A stretch of DNA of 64,000 nt, from positions 24,379 to 88,378 of the forward strand of contig CAXHJY010000447.1 of assembly GCA_964016885.1 (NCBI GenBank). The letters run 5' to 3'. Positions 475 to 62,921 of this stretch are shown here, in pieces. The first letter of the stretch is position 1, and each line of letters begins with the position of its first letter. The DNA is from Eledone cirrhosa. Lineage: Eukaryota. Position numbers and translations under genes: made by a program. The notes under the pieces are model-generated. The model searched no databases. It saw only the letters and a list, made by a program, of their open reading frames with translations, and had not been told where the DNA came from.

Positions 475-2535
475 TTGATTTCCAAGATCTTTTACACCTT
501 CATGGTGATATTATCTGCATAAGCCAACACAGCCTTTCGACATGCAAGTGAGAGCAGGATTCCCTGCAACAGCTCCAGCTTCCACAGTAAAGGCTTGAGA
601 GTCAATATGCATGGAAGGGAGGAGATAAGGCATCACTAAAATGGTTCCAAATGAAAGCCTTTAACTTTGACCACCGAGCAGATGCTGCTGTGCATTACAG
701 TGATCCAACCTCTAAAGATGGGACCAAAGCTAGCTGCCTTGAGAACAACCTCCATGTTTCGATGGTTGACCCTATCAAAAGCTTTCAATTGATCGAAATT
801 GATCAGTGCACCAATGAAGCTAGGTTTACACCCACTCACTCTATGATGTATCACATGAGGCAGAGGTTGTCATGTATGGAGCTTGTCTGGATTGTGCAAG
901 CTTGCACTTCTCCTACTAAATCCTCAAATACAAGCGCCAACCTCTTCACTTCAGCAGTGTTTGGGGCACTTTGAAGGTGTAGGTGCCCAAAATCTCCCCC
1001 TCTTTCTCAATGAGTTTAAGTTACAAGAGCCATAAGAATTTTGTTGACCCTTCTTAGTAACATAAAGTTGGGTGTATCTGTTGCTGTTGGTGTCTGCAAG
1101 TGTTTTCTTTTGTGGTTGTGTCGGTGTTGTTGATGGTTGTGGTGTTGGTGTTGTTGTGGGTGTGCCTATGTTTTCTGTTGGTGTATATTTTGTGCTTGTT
1201 GGTGTGTGTGGAGGGGAATTTTTCTTTTGCTTTTATATGTTTTCTATTTTTTTGCTTTTTGGGGTTCCCCCTCATCTTCCCATGGTGATGTGGAGAAACT
1301 GGTGTCAGGGACTCTGTATCAGAGGGGAGTAGAAGTATGTTTGCAGGTGTGTGAATGTTGTTTTGTGTTTGAGTATGTTTGGAAGAGAGAGAGAGCTTGT
1401 TTGGATGACTCGCTGGGTGGTTTTAATGGTTCTTGTTGGTGTTGGTTCCTTTCCTGTTGATGCTGGGGTTGCCTTTTGTCCTGGTACCAGCGTTGGCTCT
1501 AACAGAGGGTTTTGGTCCCCAGAAGTTTTCAGTTCGGGGCCAAAGGATTGCAGGTGTGTGGCTTCAATACAAACGAAACAATGCCGCTGTATGCCCTTTG
1601 TGACTACCTGAATTTTATACCTGTCCGGTAGTTTTATATGGTCCAGGATATTTTTTAAGTCTTCGGATCTGATTTGGAGAAGAATCTCCAAAACGGAGAC
1701 GGACCACCTTTCCCTCTTTGTAAACTTGATGTCGAGGATGGTGTCAGGCCCCCCTGCTGCCATGCATCCCAGGAGCCACAATCATTCCAGTCCCGGTGGA
1801 ATCCTGGGAACATATGCCCTTACTGTCCTTCTCCCCATGTAGGACAGGTATATTATTGTTTGGTCCATTTTGCAGGGGATCACAGAATGCTTCATAGCAA
1901 GGGCCTCAGTTTTAAAGAGCACCAAGATGCTTTCAAATTTTTGGCCCTTCCTATATGATCTATATCATTATTGTTGATGCATTTCAGTGCCGCTTCAACC
2001 TGTCCTTCAGAGGCTGTCTTGGATTTCACTGAAATGCATCTATATTTTAATGCTCTCCTTTCCTTTGCTGCCATTACTGCTGGCAGGATGTTTAAGTTAA
2101 CCTAGGTATTTTCTCTTGTTATAATTGTTTTTGCTTGGCACTAACGTTCGTTTGTCCTGTTAAGTTGATATTGTAAAGCATTTGACTTATTGCCACTGTG
2201 GCTGCGAAAGTACACCTGTTGTCACTGTTCATGTTGTCATTCTTTTTTGTTACTGTTTTGCTGCTTTTCGTTGTTGCTGATAGTGTTGTTGGTGAAGTTG
2301 TTTGTGTTGTCATTGTTCCTGCTGTTGATGGTGTTGTCATTTTTGTTCACGTTAGTGTTCTCACTACTGTTAGTGTAGTTGTTCTTGGTGCTTCTGTTGG
2401 TGATACTGCCTAATGTGGTGTTGGTGTTCATATTTGTTGTGGGAGAGGCAACATTATTTATCTCAACATTCAAGACACTTTCAAGTAACAGTTGACTGAA
2501 CGTTGGGGGTCAGTGGAGCGTCGTGCTCCGTCCAT
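475..2535 (-). mobile_element. Decayed Tx1/L1-like non-LTR retrotransposon (ORF1 remnants plus RT fragment)
   Basis: 636-854 gives LINFDQLKAFDRVNH...FGPIFRGWI...KVKG (L1/Tx1 RT motif DQxKAFDRV). 1305-2074 gives ORF1-like pieces with a degenerate zinc knuckle (CFVC...HL) and a Thr-rich low-complexity N-terminus. The endonuclease region appears deleted. Confidence 0.7.
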
Positions 2536-10992: not shown

Positions 10993-11305
10993 TAATATAA
11001 GAGACGTAAAATAAGAAAATTATAAAATTAACTTACTTACTAAAATATCACTTCCAACTAATTAGTTTCTGAAATGGAGTAAATATATTTTCCGAAGAAT
11101 AATATAGAGAAGCATTCCGTCGTCTGGAAAGTCTATCCTCATGTAAGTTTCCAGGCAAAGGGGGTAGAATAGACTTTCCTGACGACGGAATGCTTCTCTA
11201 TATTATTCTTTGGAAAATATATTTACTCCATTCCAGAAACTAATTAGTTGGAAGTGATATTTTAGTAAGTAAGTTAATTTTATAATTTTCTTATTTTACG
11301 TCTCT

Positions 11306-28530: not shown

Positions 28531-29140
<610 letters not shown>

Positions 29141-29248
29141 TAAAATAACAGATTAAAGTTTAAGCAAAGAATCGCTGATTTCACCCTTAACGGGATCTTC
29201 TGAAATTGACAAAGTCAATCTGTAAACGCGTTTACAGATTTACTTTCT

Positions 29249-30293
<1,045 letters not shown>

Positions 30294-36392: not shown

Positions 36393-36409
36393 ATATATAT
36401 ATATATATT

Positions 36410-37901
36410 TCGTTTCTGAATTTGTTTAGCAAGATTCTTTATCTGAAATCGTGTGTTGAAACCGATATTGTTATACTTTGGGAGGGTCATGTTGCCAATA
36501 AGAAACACACGCACCAGTTGCTTTCACTTCAATTTATTATAATAAATTTATAATAAATTTATAAATTTCTGGTTGGTTGGTTGGTTCCACAACCAGATAG
36601 TTGTTTATATATAGTCATAGTTCTTTTGTCACACACTCTGTGACCTCTTCAGTGACTGGGGATTCCTTTCTTTGTTTCTGTGCCTCTCCTTTGTTCTGTC
36701 CTACGCCATTTTGTTTCTGTGTGTGTGTTGTGACTCAGTCTGCGCATGCGCCACATCCGGGTGTCTGTGTGTGTTTATGTTCATTTATTTATTTGTTTAT
36801 TTACATGTTACTGGTTGGTTGTTTGTTCTATGTGTGTATGTGTTTTCATTTTGTCCTTAATTGTAAGTTGTGATGTTGCTGTTCCACTCATATTTTCTAT
36901 TTAATTTTGGTTGTAATTCTTTTATGTTTATTGCCTCTGTAATTTGTCTAAACATTGCGTCTTTTCTGTGTGTAGATTCTATTTTTATTTCTATGTTCTC
37001 TAATTTACCCTTGTGTTCTATTTTTGCATGTTAGTAGAGTACATATGATTCTTTATTATCTTGAAGGTCTCGCCAGTATTCATTTATCCGTTCCCCTACA
37101 CTACGAGCTGTCTCACCTATGTACACTATATTTTTGTCTCTACATTGTCCTTCAGTACATCTTATGCTATATATAACATTTCTAGTTTTACAGTTAATAT
37201 GGGGGCTTAATTTACAGATTATACATTTCTTATCTTTACAGGGATGTCTTTGAAAAGGGTATGTATTGCTAATAAGTGTTTTTATGGAGGTACCTGGTCT
37301 TTCTACTATCTTACTATTGTGTTTATGTTTATCTAGGGCCCTTCTAAATGTGTAAGCTAATTCACCTCTAGGGGTTGTATCGATGAACATTACACTCTGG
37401 TATTTATTGCTATCATACCATGAGTTTATTCTATTAGCCTTGTTCCTAGTTCTTTCTATTCTATTCCAAAATTTGCTCCTATACACGGGGCAGTTCCCAT
37501 TTATGTCATTATTTACCATTTTTTCCCATTTGGTTCTGGCTCCTCTATACACTCTGATTTTATCTCTCTGATTGTAGCCAGAGAACTGCATACGGTGGAT
37601 GAAGTGTTGTATGTGTCTCCCTAGTTCTTCGGGGTTGCACATGCGGGACACATTTATCATCACCCGTACCAAATCCGCAATCAGTATGTTGATTTTGGTA
37701 TGGTCCGAAACGGCCGAGTTTCGGTGGATCAGATGTTTGGAAGTCATGGGTTTGGCATAATGGGAATGGAGGATTTGTTTTTTGTTATTAATGGTATCTA
37801 ACCAGAGCTCTGTGTCTAGTACAGGTAATCGATGGTTGGGGTGTTTACTTGGGTAGTCTATAGTAACTCTAATGCTCTGGTGGATGGAGTTTGCTATTTG
37901 C
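36410..37901 (-). mobile_element. 5'-truncated PLE (family F): RT thumb plus GIY-YIG endonuclease, ORF ~37901-36857 with one premature stop at 37031, then 3' UTR
   Basis: IANSI...VTIDYPS..RLPVLD (RT motif E region); CxxxxCxxC..NCKTRNVIYSIRC...VYIGETARSVGERINE; continues past the TAA as HAKIEH...RQITEAINI...LNRKYEW. Nematis-like clade is inference only. Confidence 0.9.
36613..36657 (-). ncRNA. Hammerhead motif (family F) with GAAA mutated to AAAA
   Basis: Minus strand AGTCA-CTGAAGA-GGTCACA..TGTGAC-AAAAG-AA-CTA|TGACT; the copy at 51737-51779 keeps GAAA. Confidence 0.65.
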
Positions 37902-37917
37902 TGTCTGATTTTGAGTT

Positions 37918-37992
37918 TATCTCCTGATGATCCCAACTCTGGATAATTCATATTTGGATGTCCTAAATAAGGAAGAAACCATGGTAGAGATA
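37918..37992 (+). ncRNA. Type I hammerhead ribozyme (family G, copy 1)
   Basis: TATCTC-CTGATGA-TCC...GGAa-GAAAC-CATG-GTA|GAGATA. Confidence 0.85.
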
Positions 37993-38582
37993 TAATTACG
38001 GTATGTGCGCATTTCTTATGAGTTTAATTTTACTACTAATTGTGTGTGGTTGATGGTATATTTGGTCGGATTCTGCATGCTGCCGAAATGTTTGATAAAT
38101 AATGGAACGGGGCTGCCGCGAAGAGGCTACGATCAATTGTTTGTCAGAGATTTCCCCGTAAGAAAATTTATTCTTAAAGCTTGCTAGATTTTATTTTGTA
38201 TATGGCTAATTATGCTAATTAGAAGAAGAAATAGTATATATTTTAATATCTGATGATTCTATAGACATGATTTATGATATAATGCTCTGATTTTTTTTAT
38301 TTTAATTTATTAATTCTTCATTGAGCTTAAAAGTGAACAGTTGCAACATATATATATATAATTTTATGTATGTGATAACCTTTATATTTAATAATCTCCC
38401 AATTGGTTGAGATTAAATTTGGCGATATATGGCTGCGCTTTCTAGCAGCAAGCCTACCCGCCGTAAGCAACCAATCACACGCTTTCTCTCTGGCTGGTAC
38501 ACAGCTACGTAGCGATTTTAGCCATTTTTGAATCTAAATTTGGCGCGATCGGTTAGAAAAACTAAATGTCTGATTTTGAGTT

Positions 38583-41722: not shown

Positions 41723-42100
41723 GATATTAAATAAATGGAAACTATATTTATAAAACCATATTTATTTCATTATATATATTTCAGGGATATCATATTAAGA
41801 ATATGGTATTCCTTCATCAGACAAAATACAATATAAACAGTCTTATAAATAGATAGATTTAACATACCTTACACTTCGACTTCCATTTAAAAAGTTGATT
41901 TGGTAGTGAAAAATGTTAGGGACAGTTATAGAGAAAAAAGAAAAGAAAGAAAGAAAGAAAACGAAGAAAAAGAAGAAATGCATGTAACAAAAACCGAGAG
42001 AGATAGATATAGAGAGATAGATAGAGAGAAGAAATTCATGTAAAGAAAAAGCAGAGAGAGATATAGATAGAGAGAGAAAAAACAGAGGGATATAGATAGA

Positions 42101-42131
<31 letters not shown>

Positions 42132-45100
42132 AAAATAGAGAGAGATAAATATATAGAGAGAGAAAAATAGGTAGTTGGGCACCAGTTGAATGACGTATCA
42201 ATGATATATTTATTTATTTATTTATTTATTTAGTTACAGTATTACGGTAGAGAGAGATATATGTGGTTATGAGAGAAAACAGCCGTTACATAGAGAGAAA
42301 AGAAAAATATTCAGAGATAAACGAGGCAGATTTACAACACTATGTTTCATCAATCTAAAATATCAATTCGTATGAATTAGGTATTATAATGTAAATATCA
42401 GTATTCATGAATGAGACACGTATCAATAATGTGTGAAAAATAATGATCATATGTCTAGTTTAAAATTCCTAGGTCTATAATCAGAACTGAGATAAAACTT
42501 CCAAAAAATTGAAATACATAAGTATATATGCACTTTCATGAAAAAATAAAATAAAATAAAAGAAAATAGAAGGTTATCCCAGATTCGACACTATAGACAT
42601 CCATGTGAATTTACGTGATCAACTCTGCAAATTCTTATTTCACATGAAAACATTCTCATTGTGCTATAAAAATTCTAGTATACATATATGTGTACATAGA
42701 CACAAATATATATAGAATCTACATTAATTTTAAGAATAATATTCTTGCCTTTACTCTACATGATTATCGTTCAAGCATAGAATAGACAACAGATATCAAT
42801 ATATCAATAAAAATATTAAAAATATTAAAAATATTAAAAAATATTAAAAATATTAAAAAATATAAAAAAATATAATTAAAACGCCAAGAAAATTCCCAGA
42901 GTATCTCGGGCCGTAATAAACACAGAAATCTACCCTTCAAATTTATTTGACAATATATTGCCAAGTTCATTATAAGCATCAGAATCAAAAGCAAACAAAA
43001 CCAAAATTATTCACCAAATCCTGTCTAGCAGAAATCATTCCAAAAGTTTATGATACCCATTTGATCTACAGATGGTCTTATATTTATTATAGAAGTTTAT
43101 CTAGTGTAGAATTTATTCGATATATTTGGAGCATCATCTTTTAGGGTAGTTTAATTATTCATGAAGAATGTTTAAAAAAAAAAAAGAAATCGAAAGATTT
43201 ATCGGCGAGTTTCATAAATAATTACAAATCTTAAGTAAATATACAACAATTTTAATTACGGCAACAACTTTAACAACTATAATAGAAATCATTACAATAA
43301 TTCCAAAAGCCAAAAAAGAAATAGAACTAGAAACATAATATGGTTCCCCCCCCCCCCCTTTCTCACTAAACATTAAAACCCACATCGCTAAACTATTTTT
43401 TAATGCTCTTGATAATCGCTTCCCTAGAACACATAAGTATCACTCAATTTTCAATAGACATACTATAAAATTAACATACTCATCCACCAAAAATTTAGCA
43501 CAAAATATTAATAGAATAAATAATAGGAATTTAAAACCTAGCCAAAATACCGATAATAGCCTAAATAATATCCAAGTAAACAAATGTAACTGTAGAGATA
43601 GATCTATATGTCCGTTAAATAACAATTGCTTAGTTAAAAATATAATATACAACTGTAATGTTAAAACGGACTTAAATTCTTTTAACTATGTTGGCTCCAC
43701 CTCGACAGAATTTAAACTTCGCTATAATAACCACAAGAATTCTTTCACAGATCCAAGCAAAAAATCTTCAACATCACTATCAGGCTTACTCTGGCAACTT
43801 AAGCATGACAACGTTGGATATTCGACGGCTTGGAATATAGTCTCAAGAGGGATTCCTTTTAATTCATCTTCTGAGACATGTGACCTCTGCGCGGAGGAGA
43901 TATTCTTTATACTAAAATCTAAAAATTCCCTTAATTTACGGACAAACTTATTCAGTTGCTGCAGACATAGATTGAACTCAACTTTTAAATATAAATATAA
44001 ATTTAAAATGTAGTATATTTACTTAAGATTTGTAATTATTTATGAAACTCGCCGATAAATCTTTCGATTTCTTTTTTTTTTTTAAACATTCTTCATGAAT
44101 AATTAAACTACCCTAAAAGATGATGCTCCAAATATATCGAATAAATTTTACACTAGATACACTTCTATAATAAATATAAGACCATCTGTAGATCAAATGG
44201 GTATCCTAAACTTTTGGAATGATTTCTGCTAGACAGGATTTGGTGAATAATTTTGGTTTTGTTTGCTTTTGATTCTGATGCTTATAATGAACTTGGCAAT
44301 ATATTGTCAAATAAATTTGAAGGGTAGATTTCTGTGTTTATTACGGCCCGAGATACTCTGGGAATTTTCTTGGCGTTTTAATTATATTTTTTTATATTTT
44401 TTAATATTTTTAATATTTTTAATATTTTTATTGATATATTGATATCTGTTGTCTATTCTATGCTTGAACGATAATCATGTAGAGTAAAGGCAAGAATATT
44501 ATTCTTAAAATTAATGTAGATTCTATATATATTTGTGTCTATGTACACATATATGTATACTAGAATTTTTATAGCACAATGAGAATGTTTTCATGTGAAA
44601 TAAGAATTTGCAGAGTTGATCACGTAAATTCACATGGATGTCTATAGTGTCGAATCTGGGATAACCTTCTATTTTCTTTTATTTTATTTTATTTTTTCAT
44701 GAAAGTGCATATATACTTATGTATTTCAATTTTTTGGAAGTTTTATCTCAGTTCTGATTATAGACCTAGGAATTTTAAACTAGACATATGATCATTATTT
44801 TTCACACATTATTGATACGTGTCTCATTCATGAATACTGATATTTACATTATAATACCTAATTCATACGAATTGATATTTTAGATTGATGAAACATAGTG
44901 TTGTAAATCTGCCTCGTTTATCTCTGGATATTTTTCTTTTCTCTCTATGTAACGGCTGTTTTCTCTCATAACCACATATATCTCTCTCTACCATAATACT
45001 ATAACTAAATAAATAAATAAATAAATAAATATATCATTGATACGTCATTCAACTGGTGCCCAACTACCTATTTTTCTCTCTATATATATTTCTCTCTCTC

Positions 45101-45599
45101 TATTTTTCTCTCTCTCTCTCTCTTTTCTCTCTCTCTCTCTCTATCTATATCCCTCTGTTTTTTCTCTCTCTATCTATATCTCTCTCTGCTTTTTCTTTAC
45201 ATGAATTTCTTCTCTCTATCTATCTCTCTATATCTATCTCTCTCGGTTTTTGTTACATGCATTTCTTCTTTTTCTTCGTTTTCTTTCTTTCTTTTCTTTT
45301 TTCTCTATAACTGTCCCTAACATTTTTCACTACCAAATCAACTTTTTAAATGGAAGTCGAAGTGTAAGGTATGTCAAATCTATCTATTTATAAGACTGTT
45401 TATATTGTATTTTGTCTGATGAAGGCATACCATATTCTTAATATGATATCCCTGAAATATATAAAATGAAATAAATATGGTTTTATAAATATAGTTTCCA
45501 TTTATTTAATATCGTAAATATACTCCAAATACTTGTTCAGTGCTTTTATATCAGTTATAAATATTTACTCATTGTAACCCAACAAATTAAATAAAACTT

Positions 45600-45603
<4 letters not shown>
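41721..45603 (+). mobile_element. 5'-truncated PLE (family H): inverted 3' UTR copy (41721-43244), GIY-YIG coding fragment (43245-44013), 3' UTR (44014-45603)
   Basis: Manual translation RNIIWF..P/FSLNIKT...CNC..CPL...CLVKNIIYNC...YVGSTSTEFKLRYNNHKNSF...CDLCAEE...CCRH. The ~1.5 kb arms are inverted. HHRs at 41763-41828(-) and 45408-45473(+; cleavage triplet mutated). Confidence 0.92.
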
Positions 45604-48006: not shown

Positions 48007-48917
<911 letters not shown>

Positions 48918-49052: not shown

Positions 49053-49994
49053 TGTAAGTCTTATATTTTTATATGAGCTGATAGATGACGGTTTAAGGAT
49101 TTACAGAAACCCAAGAAGCTAGATATTCCATCTCTCTAGTGGGTCCGGGTATGCATTTTACATTCATTTCATTTATTGATTTATTGATATTTATCTGAGT
49201 GTCCCGAATCTTCCATATCGAACTTATCGGTTATTTGGTTGATTGTAGACATATTCTACGTGTGACGGTATTTAACGATAGTTATAGCTCTAATTTATTT
49301 GAATTATAGAGCCCTCTGCCGCTCATCTCGAATTTTGTTTATCGTGAACTCGTGCGCCGATTTTTCGATACTCGATTATTCTACTATATTTAGCTCTAGA
49401 CTTAGCTATTGACCAGTTAATTTTATTGTTCATTTTTTGTCGATTCTATTAAATGATGAATAGCCCCTGTTTATTTTAACATGTCTATTGAGCACTCTTA
49501 TTCGATATGTGTTTTTGCCACACTTTTCCGAATATTTTTGCGGATATAAAGGTTATCTCCCTTGCTGAAATCCATGTGCGTATTTTTAGCCTGGGTCTTG
49601 TCTTTCCATCCATTCGGACGAAGCTCGTTGATGAAGTAACTCCAGTCCCCCGCTGTCTGTAAGTCTTATATTTTTATATGAGCTGATAGATGACGGTTTA
49701 AGGATTTACAGAAACCCAAGAAGCTAGATATTCCATCTCTCTAGTGGGTCCGGGTATGCATTTTACATTCATTTCATTTATTGATTTATTGATATTTATC
49801 TGAGTGTCCCGAATCTTCCATATCGAACTTATCGGTTATTTGGTTGATTGTAGACATATTCTACGTGTGACGGTATTTAACGATAGTTATAGCTCTAATT
49901 TATTTGAATTATAGAGCCCTCTGCCGCTCATCTCGAATTTTGTTTATCGTGAACTCGTGCGCCGATTTTTCGATACTCGATTATTCTACTATAT
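49053..49994 (-). mobile_element. Family K non-coding 605 bp unit with ~337 bp terminal direct repeats
   Basis: 49053-49389 is repeated at 49658-49994; TA-flanked; diverged homologue of 29249-30155. Confidence 0.78.
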
Positions 49995-50018
49995 GATATA
50001 TATATATATTTATATATA

Positions 50019-50080
<62 letters not shown>

Positions 50081-50099
50081 ATTTATATATATATATATA

Positions 50100-50141
<42 letters not shown>

Positions 50142-50243
50142 TATATATATATATTTGTATATATATATTTATATATATATTTATATATATATATACATAT
50201 TTATATATATATTTATATATATATATACATATTTATATATGTT

Positions 50244-50275
<32 letters not shown>

Positions 50276-50344
50276 CATATATATACATATATTTATATAT
50301 ATATATATATTTATATATATATTTATATATATATTTATATATAT

Positions 50345-51416
50345 AATATTTAATACAATAACAGAGATAGTTTAAAACTAAACTCTGACTGGTAACCATC
50401 TCATTCAACAAACATTAGGTTATATTTAAATATAAACCCAATTTTAGTGTTTGGAGTGCTAACAATATGTATAATGTGGAAAAACCAGTTGTATTATTTT
50501 ATGAGATATAATTAAAGTTAAAGTATATCTCTTTCCAAATAATTGTTTCATTATAAGTTTTCTACAAGTTGGGAGAATGTTTCCAGTTCATGTAGAAGCC
50601 TAATATATATTCATGTAAGAATATATTTAGGTGGGTACTTATAAATCATCAGTGGAAGCCCGTTAAACTTTGATATAAGAACATTATTTCTTACCGCTCT
50701 CAAAAATCGTGTCCGTAAAGTTACTCTCTCTCGCCTCGAATGACCGCCAAATTTGAAATTCTAGCAGTTTTTGGCTGAGGAAGTATCATAGCGACACGAA
50801 GCGGGAAGGGGAGTCAACTCACGATCCACGAAATGAGGAAAAAAAATAATATACACGCGGGTTAATTAGTTTTTTTGAAAACATTATCAATCCAACGTGT
50901 TTAAGAACTCAATTGAAAATAAAAAAATAAATATATGCTTGTATAAATTACACACGCATATAGATATTTTCTTAGGCTAAATCAGAGTTGTACCCGAATA
51001 AGAACCGCTTCTCATAACCGCAGTAAATGCAGAAAGTTATGCTATAAAAGGCAAATGGGAATATAATTCTCCGGCCGAATTAAGAGTAAAATATGAAACA
51101 CACGCGGGTTAATTAGTTATTTCAAAACCAATATTAATTTCTCGTGTAAAGAACTCAATTAATAAAAGAAAATAAATAAGTATATGCATGTAATTATATA
51201 CGTAGGCATATATATTTTTTTTCTTAGGCTAAAAAACAGAGAAGTTACAACCAAAAAAAGCCACAATATTTCACAACAGTAATAAATACGGAAAGTCATA
51301 TTCATAAGGTACCTGGAAATAAACACCTCTGGCCAATCAAGAGTAAATATTTAATACAATAACAGAGATAGTTTAAAACTAAACTCTGACTGGTAACCAT
51401 CTCACTCAACAAACAT
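50345..51416 (-). mobile_element. Family J element: ~1001 bp monomer plus ~71 bp terminal redundancy; HHR at 50533-50657(-); internal ~250 bp subrepeats
   Basis: 50345-50415 is repeated at 51346-51416; ACACGCGGGTTAATTAGTT recurs at ~50853 and ~51101; HHR stem III has a G-to-A change. Confidence 0.8.
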
Positions 51417-51464
51417 ATATATATTTATATATATATATTTATACATATATTTATATATATATAT

Positions 51465-51935
51465 TTCGTTTCTGAATTTGTTTAGCAAGATTCTTTATCT
51501 GAAATCGTGTGTTGAAACCGATATTGTTATACTTTGGGAGGGTCATGTTGCCAATAAGAAACACACGCACCAGTTGCTTTCACTTCAATTTATTATAATA
51601 AATTTATAATAAATTTATAATAAATTTATAATAAATTCATAAATTTATAAATTTCTGGTTGGTTGGTTCCACACAGAAACAAAATGGCGTAGGACAGAAC
51701 AAAGGAGAGGCACAGAAACAAAGAAAGGAATCCCCAGTCACTGAAGAGGTCACAGAGTGTGTGACGAAAGAACTATGACAATATATAAACAACTATCTGG
51801 TTGTAGAACCAACCAACCAACCAGAAATTTATAAATTTATAAATTTATTATAAATTTATTATAATAAATTGAAGTGAAAGCAACTGGTGCGTGTGTTTCT
51901 TATTGGCAACATGACCCTCCCAAAGTATAACAATA
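51465..51935. mobile_element. Fold-back 3' end of the family F PLE with HHR at 51737-51779(+)
   Basis: 51465-51672 matches 36410-36590 and 51673-51935 is the inverse of the 36.46-36.72 kb UTR. GTCA-CTGAAGA-GGTCACA..TGTGAC-GAAAG-AA-CTA|TGAC. Confidence 0.85.
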
Positions 51936-52043
51936 TATATATATATTTATATATTTATATATATATATATTTATATATATATATTTATATATATATTTAT
52001 ATATATCTATATGTATATATATATTTATATATATATATTTATA

Positions 52044-52497: not shown

Positions 52498-58638
<6,141 letters not shown>

Positions 58639-59109: not shown

Positions 59110-62100
59110 ACGCCACCATACTTAATACGTGGACCAATCATAAGCCAGAGCCCCCCCCCCCCGCATCACCACCATTATTATAAGCCAGAGCCACCCACCC
59201 CCACCCCCACGCATCACCATTATTATTATTACGCGGACCAAATCATAAGCCAGAGGCCTATACTATCGCTTGCCCGGTTGCCTTCGATATACGATGGATG
59301 GATGGATGGATGGATGGATGGACGGACGGACTGCGGAATCCTTGGAGAGTGGAAGGGAGAGAAAAATCTGGACGCCCAGAGCGAAAATGCCAAAGTTAAA
59401 GTCAAATTCACCTCGTGGACGAGAATGCGAGCACTCCTCTTTGTTTCGTCCGCGGATGGCTAACATAACCCTATCTCCTCCCGCCCCCCACCACCCCCAC
59501 CCTCCAAACGCAACCCAAAACTTCAGAGTTGGTACCATAAATGTAGGCACCCTAAAGGGTCGCGCTAACGAGGTTGTAGAAATGCTTGAACGTAAGGAGG
59601 TCGATGTTTGTTGTATTCAAGAGACCAGGTGGAGGGGTGGGTCTGCTAGATTCATTGAGGGTAAAAAACGATGTTATAAGCTTTTCTGGGTGGGAAACGA
59701 CGATGGGCTGGGTGGAGTAGGAATCATGGTAGCAGAAAAGTGGGCAGATAAGATAATAGACGTAAATAGAGTGAACGACAGAATAATTAAAATAAGACTT
59801 GTCCTCAATAGAACTACGGTGACAGTAATATCTGCGTACGCACCCCAATCCGGACTGCCCGGCACTATAAAAGACAGATTCTATGAGACACTGTTGCTAA
59901 CTACCTCCCAAATATCTGACAGTGACTATATAATTATTGCAGGCGACCTAAATGGTCACGTTGGACAACATTGTGACGGCTATGACGAAATCCATGGAGG
60001 CTATGGGTTTGGTACTAGAAATGAGGAAGGCTCCAGAATTCTGGAATACTGTGATGCAAATAACCTAACTATCTGTAACACTAACTTCAAAAAACGTGAC
60101 AATCACCTGATTACCTATAGATCCGGGGAACACACAAGCCAGGTAGATTATATCCTTACCAGAAGACGTGACAGAGTGTCTGTTGTAAACACTAAATCCC
60201 TCCCCCATGAAGAATGCACCTCCCAACATAGACTGATAATTAGCGACCTCATAGTCAGGACGAGACGCACCCGACAGCAGAAGAGGACTATCCTCAGGAG
60301 GAAAATATGGAAACTAAAAGACCCCACAGCCAGAAATAAATTTCAAAGCATATTACTTGATGCTTTCGACAGTAAGGAAGAGCATCTAGAATCGGACAAT
60401 ATAGAGGGACAGTGGAAATTTCTGAAAGCTAACCTGCTGTTGGCGACAGACGAAGTCTGTGGCTGGAGCAGGCCTGTAGGCAGGAGGAGAGTAACATGGT
60501 GGTGGAACAGTAAGGTGGAGGGGTCAATTAAGGCCAAAAAGCAGGCTTGGAAAGTATGGCGGGATGGGGGAAGTAGAGTAGACTATCAAGTGGCCAGGAG
60601 GGAAGCTAGGAGAGAAGTGTACTTAGCAAGAAGGGAAGCTGAGGAAAGAAAGTTCAAGCATGTTCTACAACGCGATGACCAAAAACGTGAGGTGTTCAGG
60701 ATTGCCAGGCAATGCGTCAAGGAAAACCGTGATATTGTCGGGGAGAAGTGTGTACTTAACGATGATGGCATACTTGCCATCACCGACACTGATAAGAAGG
60801 TAGCTTGGAAGTGTCACTATGAAAGGCTACTAAATGAGGAGAATAAATGGGAGAAAGACAGTCTCCCCCATATCGACCCGATAGAGGGACCAGCAGTGTT
60901 AGTCGAGGGGAGTATAATAAGTAAGGCAATCAAGGATATGAAGACTGGTAAGGCGGCTGGGCCTTCGGAAATAGTTGCTGAGATGCTGAAGGCATCTGGC
61001 ACGGTGGGACACACCATGGTCACCCGCATAGTTAACCAAGTCGTACAGAATGGGGTTGTTCCGAAGGACTGGCATAGCAGCATCATCGTTAACTGTTATA
61101 AGGGTAAAGGAGACGCCCTAGATAGGAGTAACTATAGAGGCATTAAATTAATCGACCAGGTCATGAAGGTCACGGAAAAAGTAATAGCGCAACTAATCAG
61201 AGAGAGAATTGATCTAGATGAAATGCAGTTCGGGTTTGTATCAGGCAAAAGCACCACAGACGCTCTTTTCATAGTACGACAACTACAGGAGAAGTACCTA
61301 GCTAAAGGTAAACCCCTCTACTTAGCTTTTGTCGACCTGGAGAAAGCCTTCGACAGAGTCCCCCGCTCCATTATCTGGTGGGCTCTTAGAAAACTAGGCG
61401 TTGACGAATGGCTTGTGAGGGCTATACAAGCCATGTATAAAGAAACAGTCAGCAAGGTTAGAATTAACAACGAATATAGTGAAGAGTTTAGCGTAAAAGT
61501 TGGCGTCCATCAGGGCTCTGTTCTCAGCCCCCTACTATTTATTATTGCCCTTCAGGCTATAACAGAGGAGTTCAAGACAGGCTGCCCATGGGAACTCCTA
61601 TACGCAGACGACCTGACACTCATAGCGGAATCAATGGCCGAGCTAGAGAAGAAATTCCAAACATGGAAGCACGGCCTAGAGTCAAAAGGACTTAAAATTA
61701 ACCTGGCTAAGACCAAAGTTCTAGTTTGTAGGAAAGAAAACAAGGCGGCGGTCCCTTCTGGGAAATGGTCGTGCTCGGTATGTAGGAAAGGCGTAGGTAG
61801 AAACTCCATCTTATGTCCTAAATGCAAAGTATGGGTGCATAAAAGATGTAGTGGGATCACAGGTAAGCTAACTAAGAACATAGACTTTACATGTGGCCGG
61901 TGTTCTGGTGCAATAAGTAGCAGCAAGTGCCCACAAAATACTAGCTCTTTCAATTGCGCAGAGGGTTTTATAGAAATAGTGGACAGCTTCCGTTACCTGG
62001 GCGATAAAATCAGCAGTGGGGGAGGGTGCTCTGAAAGTACTGTAGCTAGAGTCAGAACTGGTTGGAAAAAGTTCAGAGAGCTTATACCACTATTAGCTGC

Positions 62101-62921
62101 TAAAGGGTTCTCCCTAAAAATGAAAGGCAGGTTGTACGATGCCTGCATACGAACAGCAATGTTGCATGGTAGTGAGACCTGGGCATTGTGTGCAGAGGAT
62201 ATACGCAGACTAGAGAGGAACGAAGCTTGCATGCTCCGCTGGATGTGTAACAGTAATATACGTGAACGGCAAAGCATAAACGAACTAAGGAAAAAATTAG
62301 AGATAAGAGGGATCAGATGTTGTTTACTCGAGAGAAGGCTGCGTTGGTATGGACACGTGATGCGCATGAAAGTCGATAGCTGTATTACAAAGTGCAGGGC
62401 AATAAAGATAGACGGTAGCCACGGAATAGGCAGACCTAGAAAAACATGGGATGAGCTGATAAACTCCGACCTCACACACTTACACCTCTCCAAGACAATG
62501 TCACTGGACCGTGACCTTTGGCGGTACTCAGTAACAGAGAAGACCCGCCTTGCCAGTAGGCATCTCTAACAAAATACACCCCTCCCGCCGCCACCCCCAC
62601 CCCATCCACACCACCCCGTTCTATGTAAAGTTATGTTGGTGCCGCGCCATCCAGGCCGAAACAAATGAGATCGTGTAGGTGTCACGACAAAAAAACACAC
62701 AGTCCACGCTGTAATGTGGCCGTGTAGGCAACACGGTAAAAACCTCCCAGACCCACACTGTAAATGTGGGTTGGTGTTAGGAAGGGCATCCAACTGTAGA
62801 AAACCTGCCAGACAGTCCTATGCGAGCAAGACAATCACTCTTGCCTCAAGTGGGACTACCCCCGTCCAAACCCATGCAAGCGTGGAACACGGACGTTAAA
62901 CGTTGATGATGATGATGATGA

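Follow-up and report, generated by a model that had tools for sequence, protein, structure and literature searches.

The window, a stretch of 64,000 nucleotides, carries at 50345–51416 on the minus strand an insertion that lies between (TA)n runs and consists of a 1001-bp monomer and a 71-bp repeat of the monomer's own start. The initial annotation had described this architecture, and closer comparison agrees with it: the two copies of the terminal repeat (50345–50415 and 51346–51416) are identical at 70 of 71 positions, the final 2 nt of the overhang being microhomology with the TA run, and the internal subrepeats of about 250 bp (50841–51090 and 51088–51347) are 71% identical. The initial annotation saw possible promoter or packaging modules in these subrepeats; the second is located directly 3′ of the presumed initiation site in a circular or tandem RNA. 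The diverged second copy that had been pointed out (48122–48917) is 93% identical, has the left end in common and retains an intact GUU cleavage site. As also proposed, the element is non-coding, with a longest ATG-started frame of 48 aa on the circularised monomer and a longest stop-to-stop frame of 63 aa on the doubled monomer.

Table 1. Coordinates of the element, its parts and the pre-tRNAs fused to family members (positions without a prefix are those of the window).
Feature	Position	Strand	Remarks
Whole insertion, 1.07-mer	50345..51416	-	read 5′ to 3′ on the minus strand
Monomer without ORF, 1001 bp	50345..51345	-	
Fixed end, monomer positions 1–6, abutting (TA)n	50345..50350	-	putative reverse-transcription start
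Second-lap overhang, 71 bp, at the variable (5′-truncated) end	51346..51416	-	
Type I hammerhead	50533..50657	-	core and stem scan
Subrepeat 1, ~250 bp	50841..51090	-	holds hairpin with compensatory changes at monomer 675–687
Subrepeat 2, ~260 bp	51088..51347	-	71% identical to subrepeat 1
Segment across the monomer junction, 38 nt	51339..51376	-	31/38 match to short 3′ end of Hydra-clade PLE (L117/L339)
Second, independent 0.8-mer copy	48122..48917	-	intact ribozyme (core 48431, cleavage after 48316)
(TA)n-rich target, left flank	49995..50344	.	
(TA)n-rich target, right flank	51417..51464	.	
tRNA-Lys(UUU) with intron, fused	L146:2143-2236		
tRNA-Lys(UUU) with intron, fused	L150:2420-2513		
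tRNA-Lys(UUU) with intron, fused	L208:2199-2292		
tRNA-Lys(UUU) with intron, fused	L225:1476-1569		
tRNA-Lys(UUU) with intron, fused	L255:1503-1596		
tRNA-Lys(UUU) with intron, fused	L303:~1428-1525		
tRNA-Asp(GUC), fused	L191:2436-2507		

The single minus-strand hammerhead with a long stem II, another feature of the initial annotation, is a type I motif with a helix II region of 96 nt. Its core is formed by CUGAUGA (50652–50646) and GAAA (50549–50546), with the cleavage site after 50538, corresponding to monomer position 194. Helix I comprises 5 bp (UUCCA/UGGAA), helix III is palindromic, and helix II is branched and closed by a U·U opposition. The motif rests on our core-and-stem scan, because an Rfam scan of the window reported no hammerhead and returned only microsatellite-driven miRNA noise. 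In the main copy the motif is mutated, with G16.2 changed to A at 50540 (AUU); GUU is found in 178 of the 180 family units that span the ribozyme and the window's AUU in only 1 of 180. The change abolishes the predicted dimeric helix III (−8.8 versus +0.6 kcal/mol). Since it has a single ribozyme, and that one mutated, the window copy is likely an inactive daughter. The insertion, between the same flanks, occurs on contig C730 as well (L002); the neighborhood of the window is present twice in the assembly (contigs C474 and C730, 99% identical), probably as a haplotype duplicate.

Across the family there is one type I hammerhead per repeat unit, with core, triplet and helix III pair intact in 164 of 180 units; among the core positions, N7 alone varies. 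The ribozyme may nevertheless be weak, because U·U replaces the G10.1–C11.1 pair, given as the conserved helix II closing pair of hammerheads in the accessible text of PMC4209133, and because the predicted ribozyme fold lies 3.5–4.3 kcal/mol above the local minimum. We extracted nine natural ribozyme-to-ribozyme units (994–1013 nt) and folded them as circles, in which the ribozyme helices had a probability of at most 0.1 (the constrained fold of one of the nine, L215, gave no energy change and was left out of the count); these models predict a ribozyme that is masked in the circle. The minus-strand circle folds at −233.8 kcal/mol, compared to −186.8±8.2 for 12 shuffles, and the plus strand is likewise more structured than its shuffles (−202.4 versus −177.2±7.0 kcal/mol). 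In alignment folds, pairing is kept at 17 of 20 paired variable sites of the minus strand, with compensatory changes at 675–687, and at 11 of 11 of the plus strand. Further hammerhead families occur in the window (at 11179, 31092, 36259, 37924, 38589 and 46050) and at L007:3762, some of them with a long helix II and a non-canonical closing pair (U·U or C·A). The L007 ribozyme has the same helix III as the element; for this sister group of long-helix-II ribozymes, no PLE (Penelope-like element) ORF was found within 20 kb.

In the 3.0-Gb animal genome that we searched (G000), the family had 2,631 first-look candidates, 39 of which were scored. The terminal 31-mer has 733 exact matches genome-wide and an 18-mer over the ribozyme core 1,001, with none for the controls; by exact match to the ribozyme core, the family thus has at least 1,001 copies, of which we read about 200. 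It comprises at least two subfamilies. On the ribozyme strand, the left end of the insertions corresponds to the 3′ end; it is fixed (positions 1–6), adjoins (TA)n and sits 192 nt downstream of the cleavage site. It was present in all 30 loci found with the last 200 bp of the monomer, i.e. its far end, in 39 of 39 insertions identified by the ribozyme core (40 loci minus one duplicate), in 86 of 87 identified by the terminal 31-mer (78 at once and 8 upon refetching) and in 19 of 20 further loci. The exceptions are L061 (937), L179 (236) and L314 (21).

The opposite end is variable, with insertions ranging from 0.04 to over 2 monomers: 55 of the 87 position-ordered insertions are shorter than one monomer and 32 are longer, with their units head-to-tail. 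Overhangs measure 0–903 nt. A second lap is completed in just 2 of the 67 multimers, so that long rolling-circle arrays are nearly absent. With one end fixed and overhangs of such different lengths, the endpoints, for which the initial annotation had suggested a check for circular permutation, are not permuted, and the 71-bp overhang is one draw from this distribution and no family trait. Most variable ends (148 of 187) reach TATA or ATAT within 8 nt. Three insertions have inverted, head-to-head 5′ arms (L199, L022, L023); in L199 the opposite arm is a second copy of the element and both fixed ends point outward. An alternative start at the inner subrepeat boundary was rejected: the boundary has one pattern match genome-wide, which is not an end. 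The inverted pieces in L054 and L173 are fold-backs around (TA)n. Internal deletions and jumps occur in L076, L146, L160 and L022, and one copy (L217:2206-2437) carries a third subrepeat.

For the origin of the redundancy, we compared the units within 50 insertions that have an overhang of at least 130 nt (49 pairs after one segmental duplicate was dropped). Overlapping units of one insertion differ by 1.8%, compared to 3.9–4.1% between insertions, whichever unit is used (50 pairs), and paired units have 64 rare alleles in common, against 3.9±2.9 in permutations (50 pairs). At 64 segregating sites, they are concordant in 906 of 918 comparisons, where the null discordance is 34% (49 pairs). The differences that do exist are mostly private (260 of 299) and balanced between the units (137 versus 162), with 26 recurrent one-direction differences for 25.6 expected. 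Among the compared pairs there are no separate upstream and downstream unit lineages. This concordance makes it likely that in each multimeric insertion one template was copied twice. A circle is compatible with it, as is an end-to-end jump within one molecule, and it speaks against a stable tandem mother and against random RNA-to-RNA jumps; gene conversion is another possible cause of the likeness. The initial annotation had attributed the redundancy to reverse transcription of a circular or multimeric RNA, of which the copying of one template more than once is supported, whereas permuted ends and a constant 1.07-mer are not. Its broader reading of a non-coding, retrozyme-like family is supported by the lack of an ORF, the ribozyme units and this repeated copying.

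Variable ends also pile up at monomer positions 161–200, just inside the cleavage site. On the first lap, 9 of 72 ends fall into this interval against a background of 4.1% (p=0.003 for the chosen bin), which is not significant after correction for the choice of window (40 of 300 simulations). On the second lap, the interval holds 14 of 45 ends, compared to a background of 11%, and the corrected value is 2 of 300 simulations. TA microhomology, which is also found in this bin, is a confounder.

The monomer junction resembles a PLE. A segment of 38 nt matches the short 3′ end of a Hydra-clade PLE at 31 positions (0 of 1000 shuffles), and the match ends exactly at the short end of this family. Among 122 recurrent TA-abutting ends, the Hydra-type PLE gave the best non-self score (39; next 26, median 14), and among 91 PLE 3′ regions in the fetched DNA, it is the only family that shares the junction. 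The similarity of the 3′ ends over about 38 nt may be taken as modest evidence for a connection. The 3′ ends of the other PLEs of the window (Neptune-type, 36409–38023; Hydra-type, 52510–58450) were not more similar to the element than shuffles. The 5′-truncated ORF of the matching family (L339) has a YRDD reverse transcriptase (RT) core and CxCX5C (linker), CxxC and CxH motifs, corresponding to the Hydra-clade signature in the accessible part of PMC8557442; by this motif signature, we assign it to the Hydra clade. In insertions of L339-type PLEs, a short-end and a long-end arm face each other head-to-head; in L022, a single event, the element takes the place of the short arm and is joined head-to-head to the long end. 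In L023, also a single event, it is head-to-head with a different, Neptune-type PLE, which makes the Hydra-type partner less certain; on these sequence data, we would give that family about an even chance of being the partner.

The Hydra-type PLE at L339:7389-9813 has two 3′ ends at a distance of about 100 nt, the core variant CAGAAGA in its ribozyme and two UTR subrepeats of ~120–140 nt; a fragment of it lies in the window (29016–29229). The element keeps both helix I strands of the L339 ribozyme side by side without the core, possibly as the remnant of a deletion. A second Hydra-type PLE forms inverted pairs in the window (41800–45600 and 52510–58450); its hammerheads lie at about 50 and 140 nt from the ends, and it shares a 13-nt motif with the element junction. 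The young Neptune-type PLE at 36409–37900 and 51465–51936 has a minimal hammerhead and 2,462 first-look candidates; it retains open frames of 847 aa in L275 and L288, and its main arms end about 60 nt further than the inverted ones.

Biochemical work on a purified PLE protein, as far as the accessible text of PMC11167929 goes, found that it nicks AT-rich DNA on both strands, extends both target strands and starts reverse transcription internally, downstream of the hammerhead, and that it needs RNA on the 3′ side of this start. Insertion in vitro did not depend on hammerhead cleavage, none of the RNA reads had its end at the cleavage site, and the main substrate was uncleaved RNA. By analogy, the internal start of this protein would match the geometry of the element.

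We regard the element as a large non-autonomous PLE of the non-LTR retrozyme type that is copied from a circular template, mobilised by a PLE and reverse transcribed from an internal start (probability roughly 70%); the borrowed reverse transcriptase is probably that of a Hydra-clade PLE. A cycle would begin with minus-strand transcription of a rare copy that has at least 1.3 monomers and two ribozymes. These ribozymes, probably dimerised via the palindromic helix III, would excise a monomer, and ligation would give a circle with a predictably masked ribozyme. The PLE protein would then nick (TA)n, and reverse transcription would begin at an internal position of the RNA, 192 nt to the 3′ side of the cleavage site. 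From there, a cut monomer offers only 192 nt up to its 5′ end, so that anything longer than a 0.19-mer requires an RNA that is circular, rejoined or uncut. On the circle, the enzyme would read across the ligation point and leave an overhang in the roughly one third of copies in which it passes its own start; it would often halt at the cleavage site, as expected with cut molecules. Finally, the opposite target strand could be extended on available RNA, be it the element, a PLE or a pre-tRNA, producing the head-to-head 5′ junctions.

Templating by a linear RNA is the closest competitor, which we consider unlikely. The same PLE-type element would be copied from an uncleaved tandem or read-through transcript, or from a cut monomer bridged by an RT jump; its units would be alike because the source arrays are young or gene-converted, and the ribozyme would be a passenger or serve only to trim the 5′ end. 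Stops on the second lap are about three times as frequent as on the first, multimers beyond two laps are as rare as noted above, and 1.19-mers pile up, as from a linear RNA with a cleaved 5′ end, all of which would suit such a template. So would the role of uncleaved RNA as the main in vitro substrate of a PLE, in the accessible text of PMC11167929, and the internal deletions and jumps of the four copies listed above. In DNA, an intramolecular end-to-end jump looks the same as a circle. A stable tandem mother, however, is expected to leave upstream and downstream unit lineages or recurrent polarised differences, and the compared pairs have neither.

That the element might instead be the pseudo-LTR or 3′ UTR of an autonomous PLE, with ORF-bearing copies so rare that the sample missed them, seems very unlikely to us. 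Its geometry is that of the autonomous PLEs in this genome, which have a ribozyme 30–240 nt from the fixed, TA-abutting end and are truncated at the 5′ end, and the copies read are only about 200 out of more than 1,000. Yet on reaching position 1001, the sampled copies all either go back to position 1 or terminate; a PLE ORF follows in none of them, a contiguity that would have made the family an ordinary pLTR, and each lacks a contiguous RT and GIY-YIG ORF. The monomer also does not occur as UTR in any of the 91 PLE 3′ regions, L179 merely abutting a copy.

Seven insertions have their variable end fused head-to-head to a full-length pre-tRNA, six tRNA-Lys and one tRNA-Asp, whose 3′ trailer abuts (TA)n. 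These pre-tRNAs are unprocessed, with leader, trailer and, in tRNA-Lys, the intron retained, and they read in sense on the plus strand. In leader, intron and trailer, four match tRNA genes of the cluster at C1:206 Mb and one those of L253, while another resembles the genes at C2:99 Mb. Clusters of intron-containing tRNA-Lys(UUU) genes are found at C1:206118815-206128215, C2:99.02-99.11 Mb and C19:7.18-7.19 Mb, with variable introns and other intron-containing tRNA genes interspersed. Genome-wide, patterns of the Lys end and a TA run matched six distinct places, all six of them fused, and the Asp pattern matched only the known fusion. Fusions were seen in 4 of 126 position-ordered insertions and 0 of 20 additional ones. 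Six pre-tRNA-like copies stand alone in TA runs (L235, L237, L240, L251, L325, L326). The idea that all TA-flanked pre-tRNA copies are fused to the element had to be abandoned, as two of two C1 tRNA-type matches to a blind pattern (14 places fetched) were unfused, as were L235, L237, L240 and L251. A role of the tRNA as primer was rejected on orientation and position. There is no base-pairing of more than 10 nt between the element RNA and the captured pre-tRNAs. Among 29 loci of Neptune-type PLEs no tRNA was called, and at 20 selected loci Rfam gave no RNA of another kind.

The fusions have the geometry of L199, which makes extension of the opposite target strand on nearby RNA their likely cause; they may thus be the footprint of a poorly understood second-strand step. 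In open-access literature, at the level of search listings, we found no earlier report of such fusions. The sense orientation of the captured pre-tRNAs, together with the many variable ends at TA microhomology, would also suit a template of plus-strand polarity, with the fixed end as the 5′ end of the transcript and with priming either at variable AT-rich sites or, before a template switch, on a pre-tRNA. We consider this highly improbable: it leaves unexplained why position 2 is passed once and is a stop the second time, why ends accumulate at the minus-strand cleavage site and why L199-type pairs have both fixed ends outward. Barely credible is a target-site or local tandem duplication as the source of the 71 bp, an objection already anticipated in the initial annotation, for although the higher-order 1.7-kb repeat of L160 could be a local duplication, the 71 bp are element sequence, what is repeated in the 67 sampled multimers is without exception the start of the element, in phase, and the genuine target duplications consist of short stretches of host DNA (about 22 bp in L034, 8–9 bp in L055). 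L160 itself (C1:343059115-343062557) is an array in which a 711-bp deleted unit and a full unit alternate twice, followed by a short overhang, and stems from either a heterodimeric circle or a local duplication.

Returning to the circle-templated PLE, a bolder version of it, which we hold only tentatively and think rather doubtful, has a viroid-sized RNA circle of 1 kb parasitise the RT of a Hydra-clade Penelope through a copied initiation signal, with genomic copies as records of rolling-circle, target-primed reverse transcription and a second strand that preferentially captures nascent, unspliced pre-tRNAs. Such a preference, if true, would place circularisation and integration of retrozymes beside the tRNA-processing (ligase) machinery. 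A tRNA ligase circularised retrozyme RNA in vitro, according to the available text of PMC7229834; a link of the fusions to this enzyme is speculation.

Among known systems, as described in the accessible parts of the sources cited, metazoan non-LTR retrozymes (PMC7229834; bioRxiv 10.64898/2026.07.22.740005) likewise lack an ORF, carry a type I hammerhead in each of their head-to-tail units, are AT-rich, co-occur with PLEs and have been proposed to use a circular template. Those tested in PMC7229834 are smaller (170–400 nt) than the element (~1,000 nt), which is at the edge of the consensus range of the preprint (51–972 bp), whose tandem-repeat search was limited to a period of 1000. Unlike them, the element mostly forms dispersed sub-monomer or 1.x-mer copies and not arrays, and the available descriptions do not mention a fixed internal start, a helix II of 96–97 nt, subrepeats or pre-tRNA fusions. 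Judged by its DNA, the element would count as a non-LTR retrozyme; structurally it would also qualify as a non-autonomous PLE, having a fixed 3′ end downstream of the ribozyme, variable 5′ truncation and a partial tandem (pLTR), and is presumably mobilised in trans.

With MRC1/Chlamys of Chlamydomonas it shares the partial-tandem pseudo-LTR, microsatellite targeting and 3′-end similarity to an autonomous family; PLEs of that type, in the text available (PMC8557442), generally have no canonical hammerhead, whereas the element has one, and its segment in common with the autonomous family is only ~38 nt. Autonomous EN+ PLEs of the Hydra clade (PMC8557442) and Poseidon PAc (PMC11167929), in the portions accessible, have (TA)n or AT-rich targets, 5′ truncation, a fixed end downstream of the hammerhead and inverted head-to-head 5′ arms in common with it. 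In contrast to them, the element has no RT/GIY-YIG ORF, essentially one start site and no regular 'tail' class (one possible case, L061). Plant LTR retrozymes, in the accessible text of PMC7229834 and the preprint 10.64898/2026.07.22.740005, are of the same size class (600–1000 nt), to be compared with an element whose ribozyme is predicted to be masked in the circle. They have a type III ribozyme, LTRs, PBS/PPT and a 4-bp TSD (PMC7229834), none of which is found here, where the ribozyme topology is type I and the overhang of 0–903 nt does not form two equal LTRs.

The class of the element is already known, and circle-templated copying beyond unit length had been proposed before (PMC4209133, in its available text). 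What is added here is size, population evidence, a candidate partner signal and the pre-tRNA fusions. The family bears on the circular templating of PLEs and animal retrozymes, the role of the hammerhead and the enzyme that moves retrozymes, issues raised in the accessible parts of PMC4209133, PMC7229834, PMC8557442, PMC11167929 and the 2026 preprint, and it does so with genomic evidence at the population level: one template likely copied twice, a fixed internal start and stops at the cleavage site. It also provides candidates for the RT family and, with the 38-nt segment, for the signal, so that the question of the circle becomes directly testable.

The window also contains another TA-flanked element (49053–49994) with a period of 605 bp and a terminal redundancy of about 315–340 bp, of which a diverged relative lies at 29249–30155, and, at 59249–62569, an open frame of 1106 aa from an endonuclease/RT non-LTR element, with an internal PHD finger.
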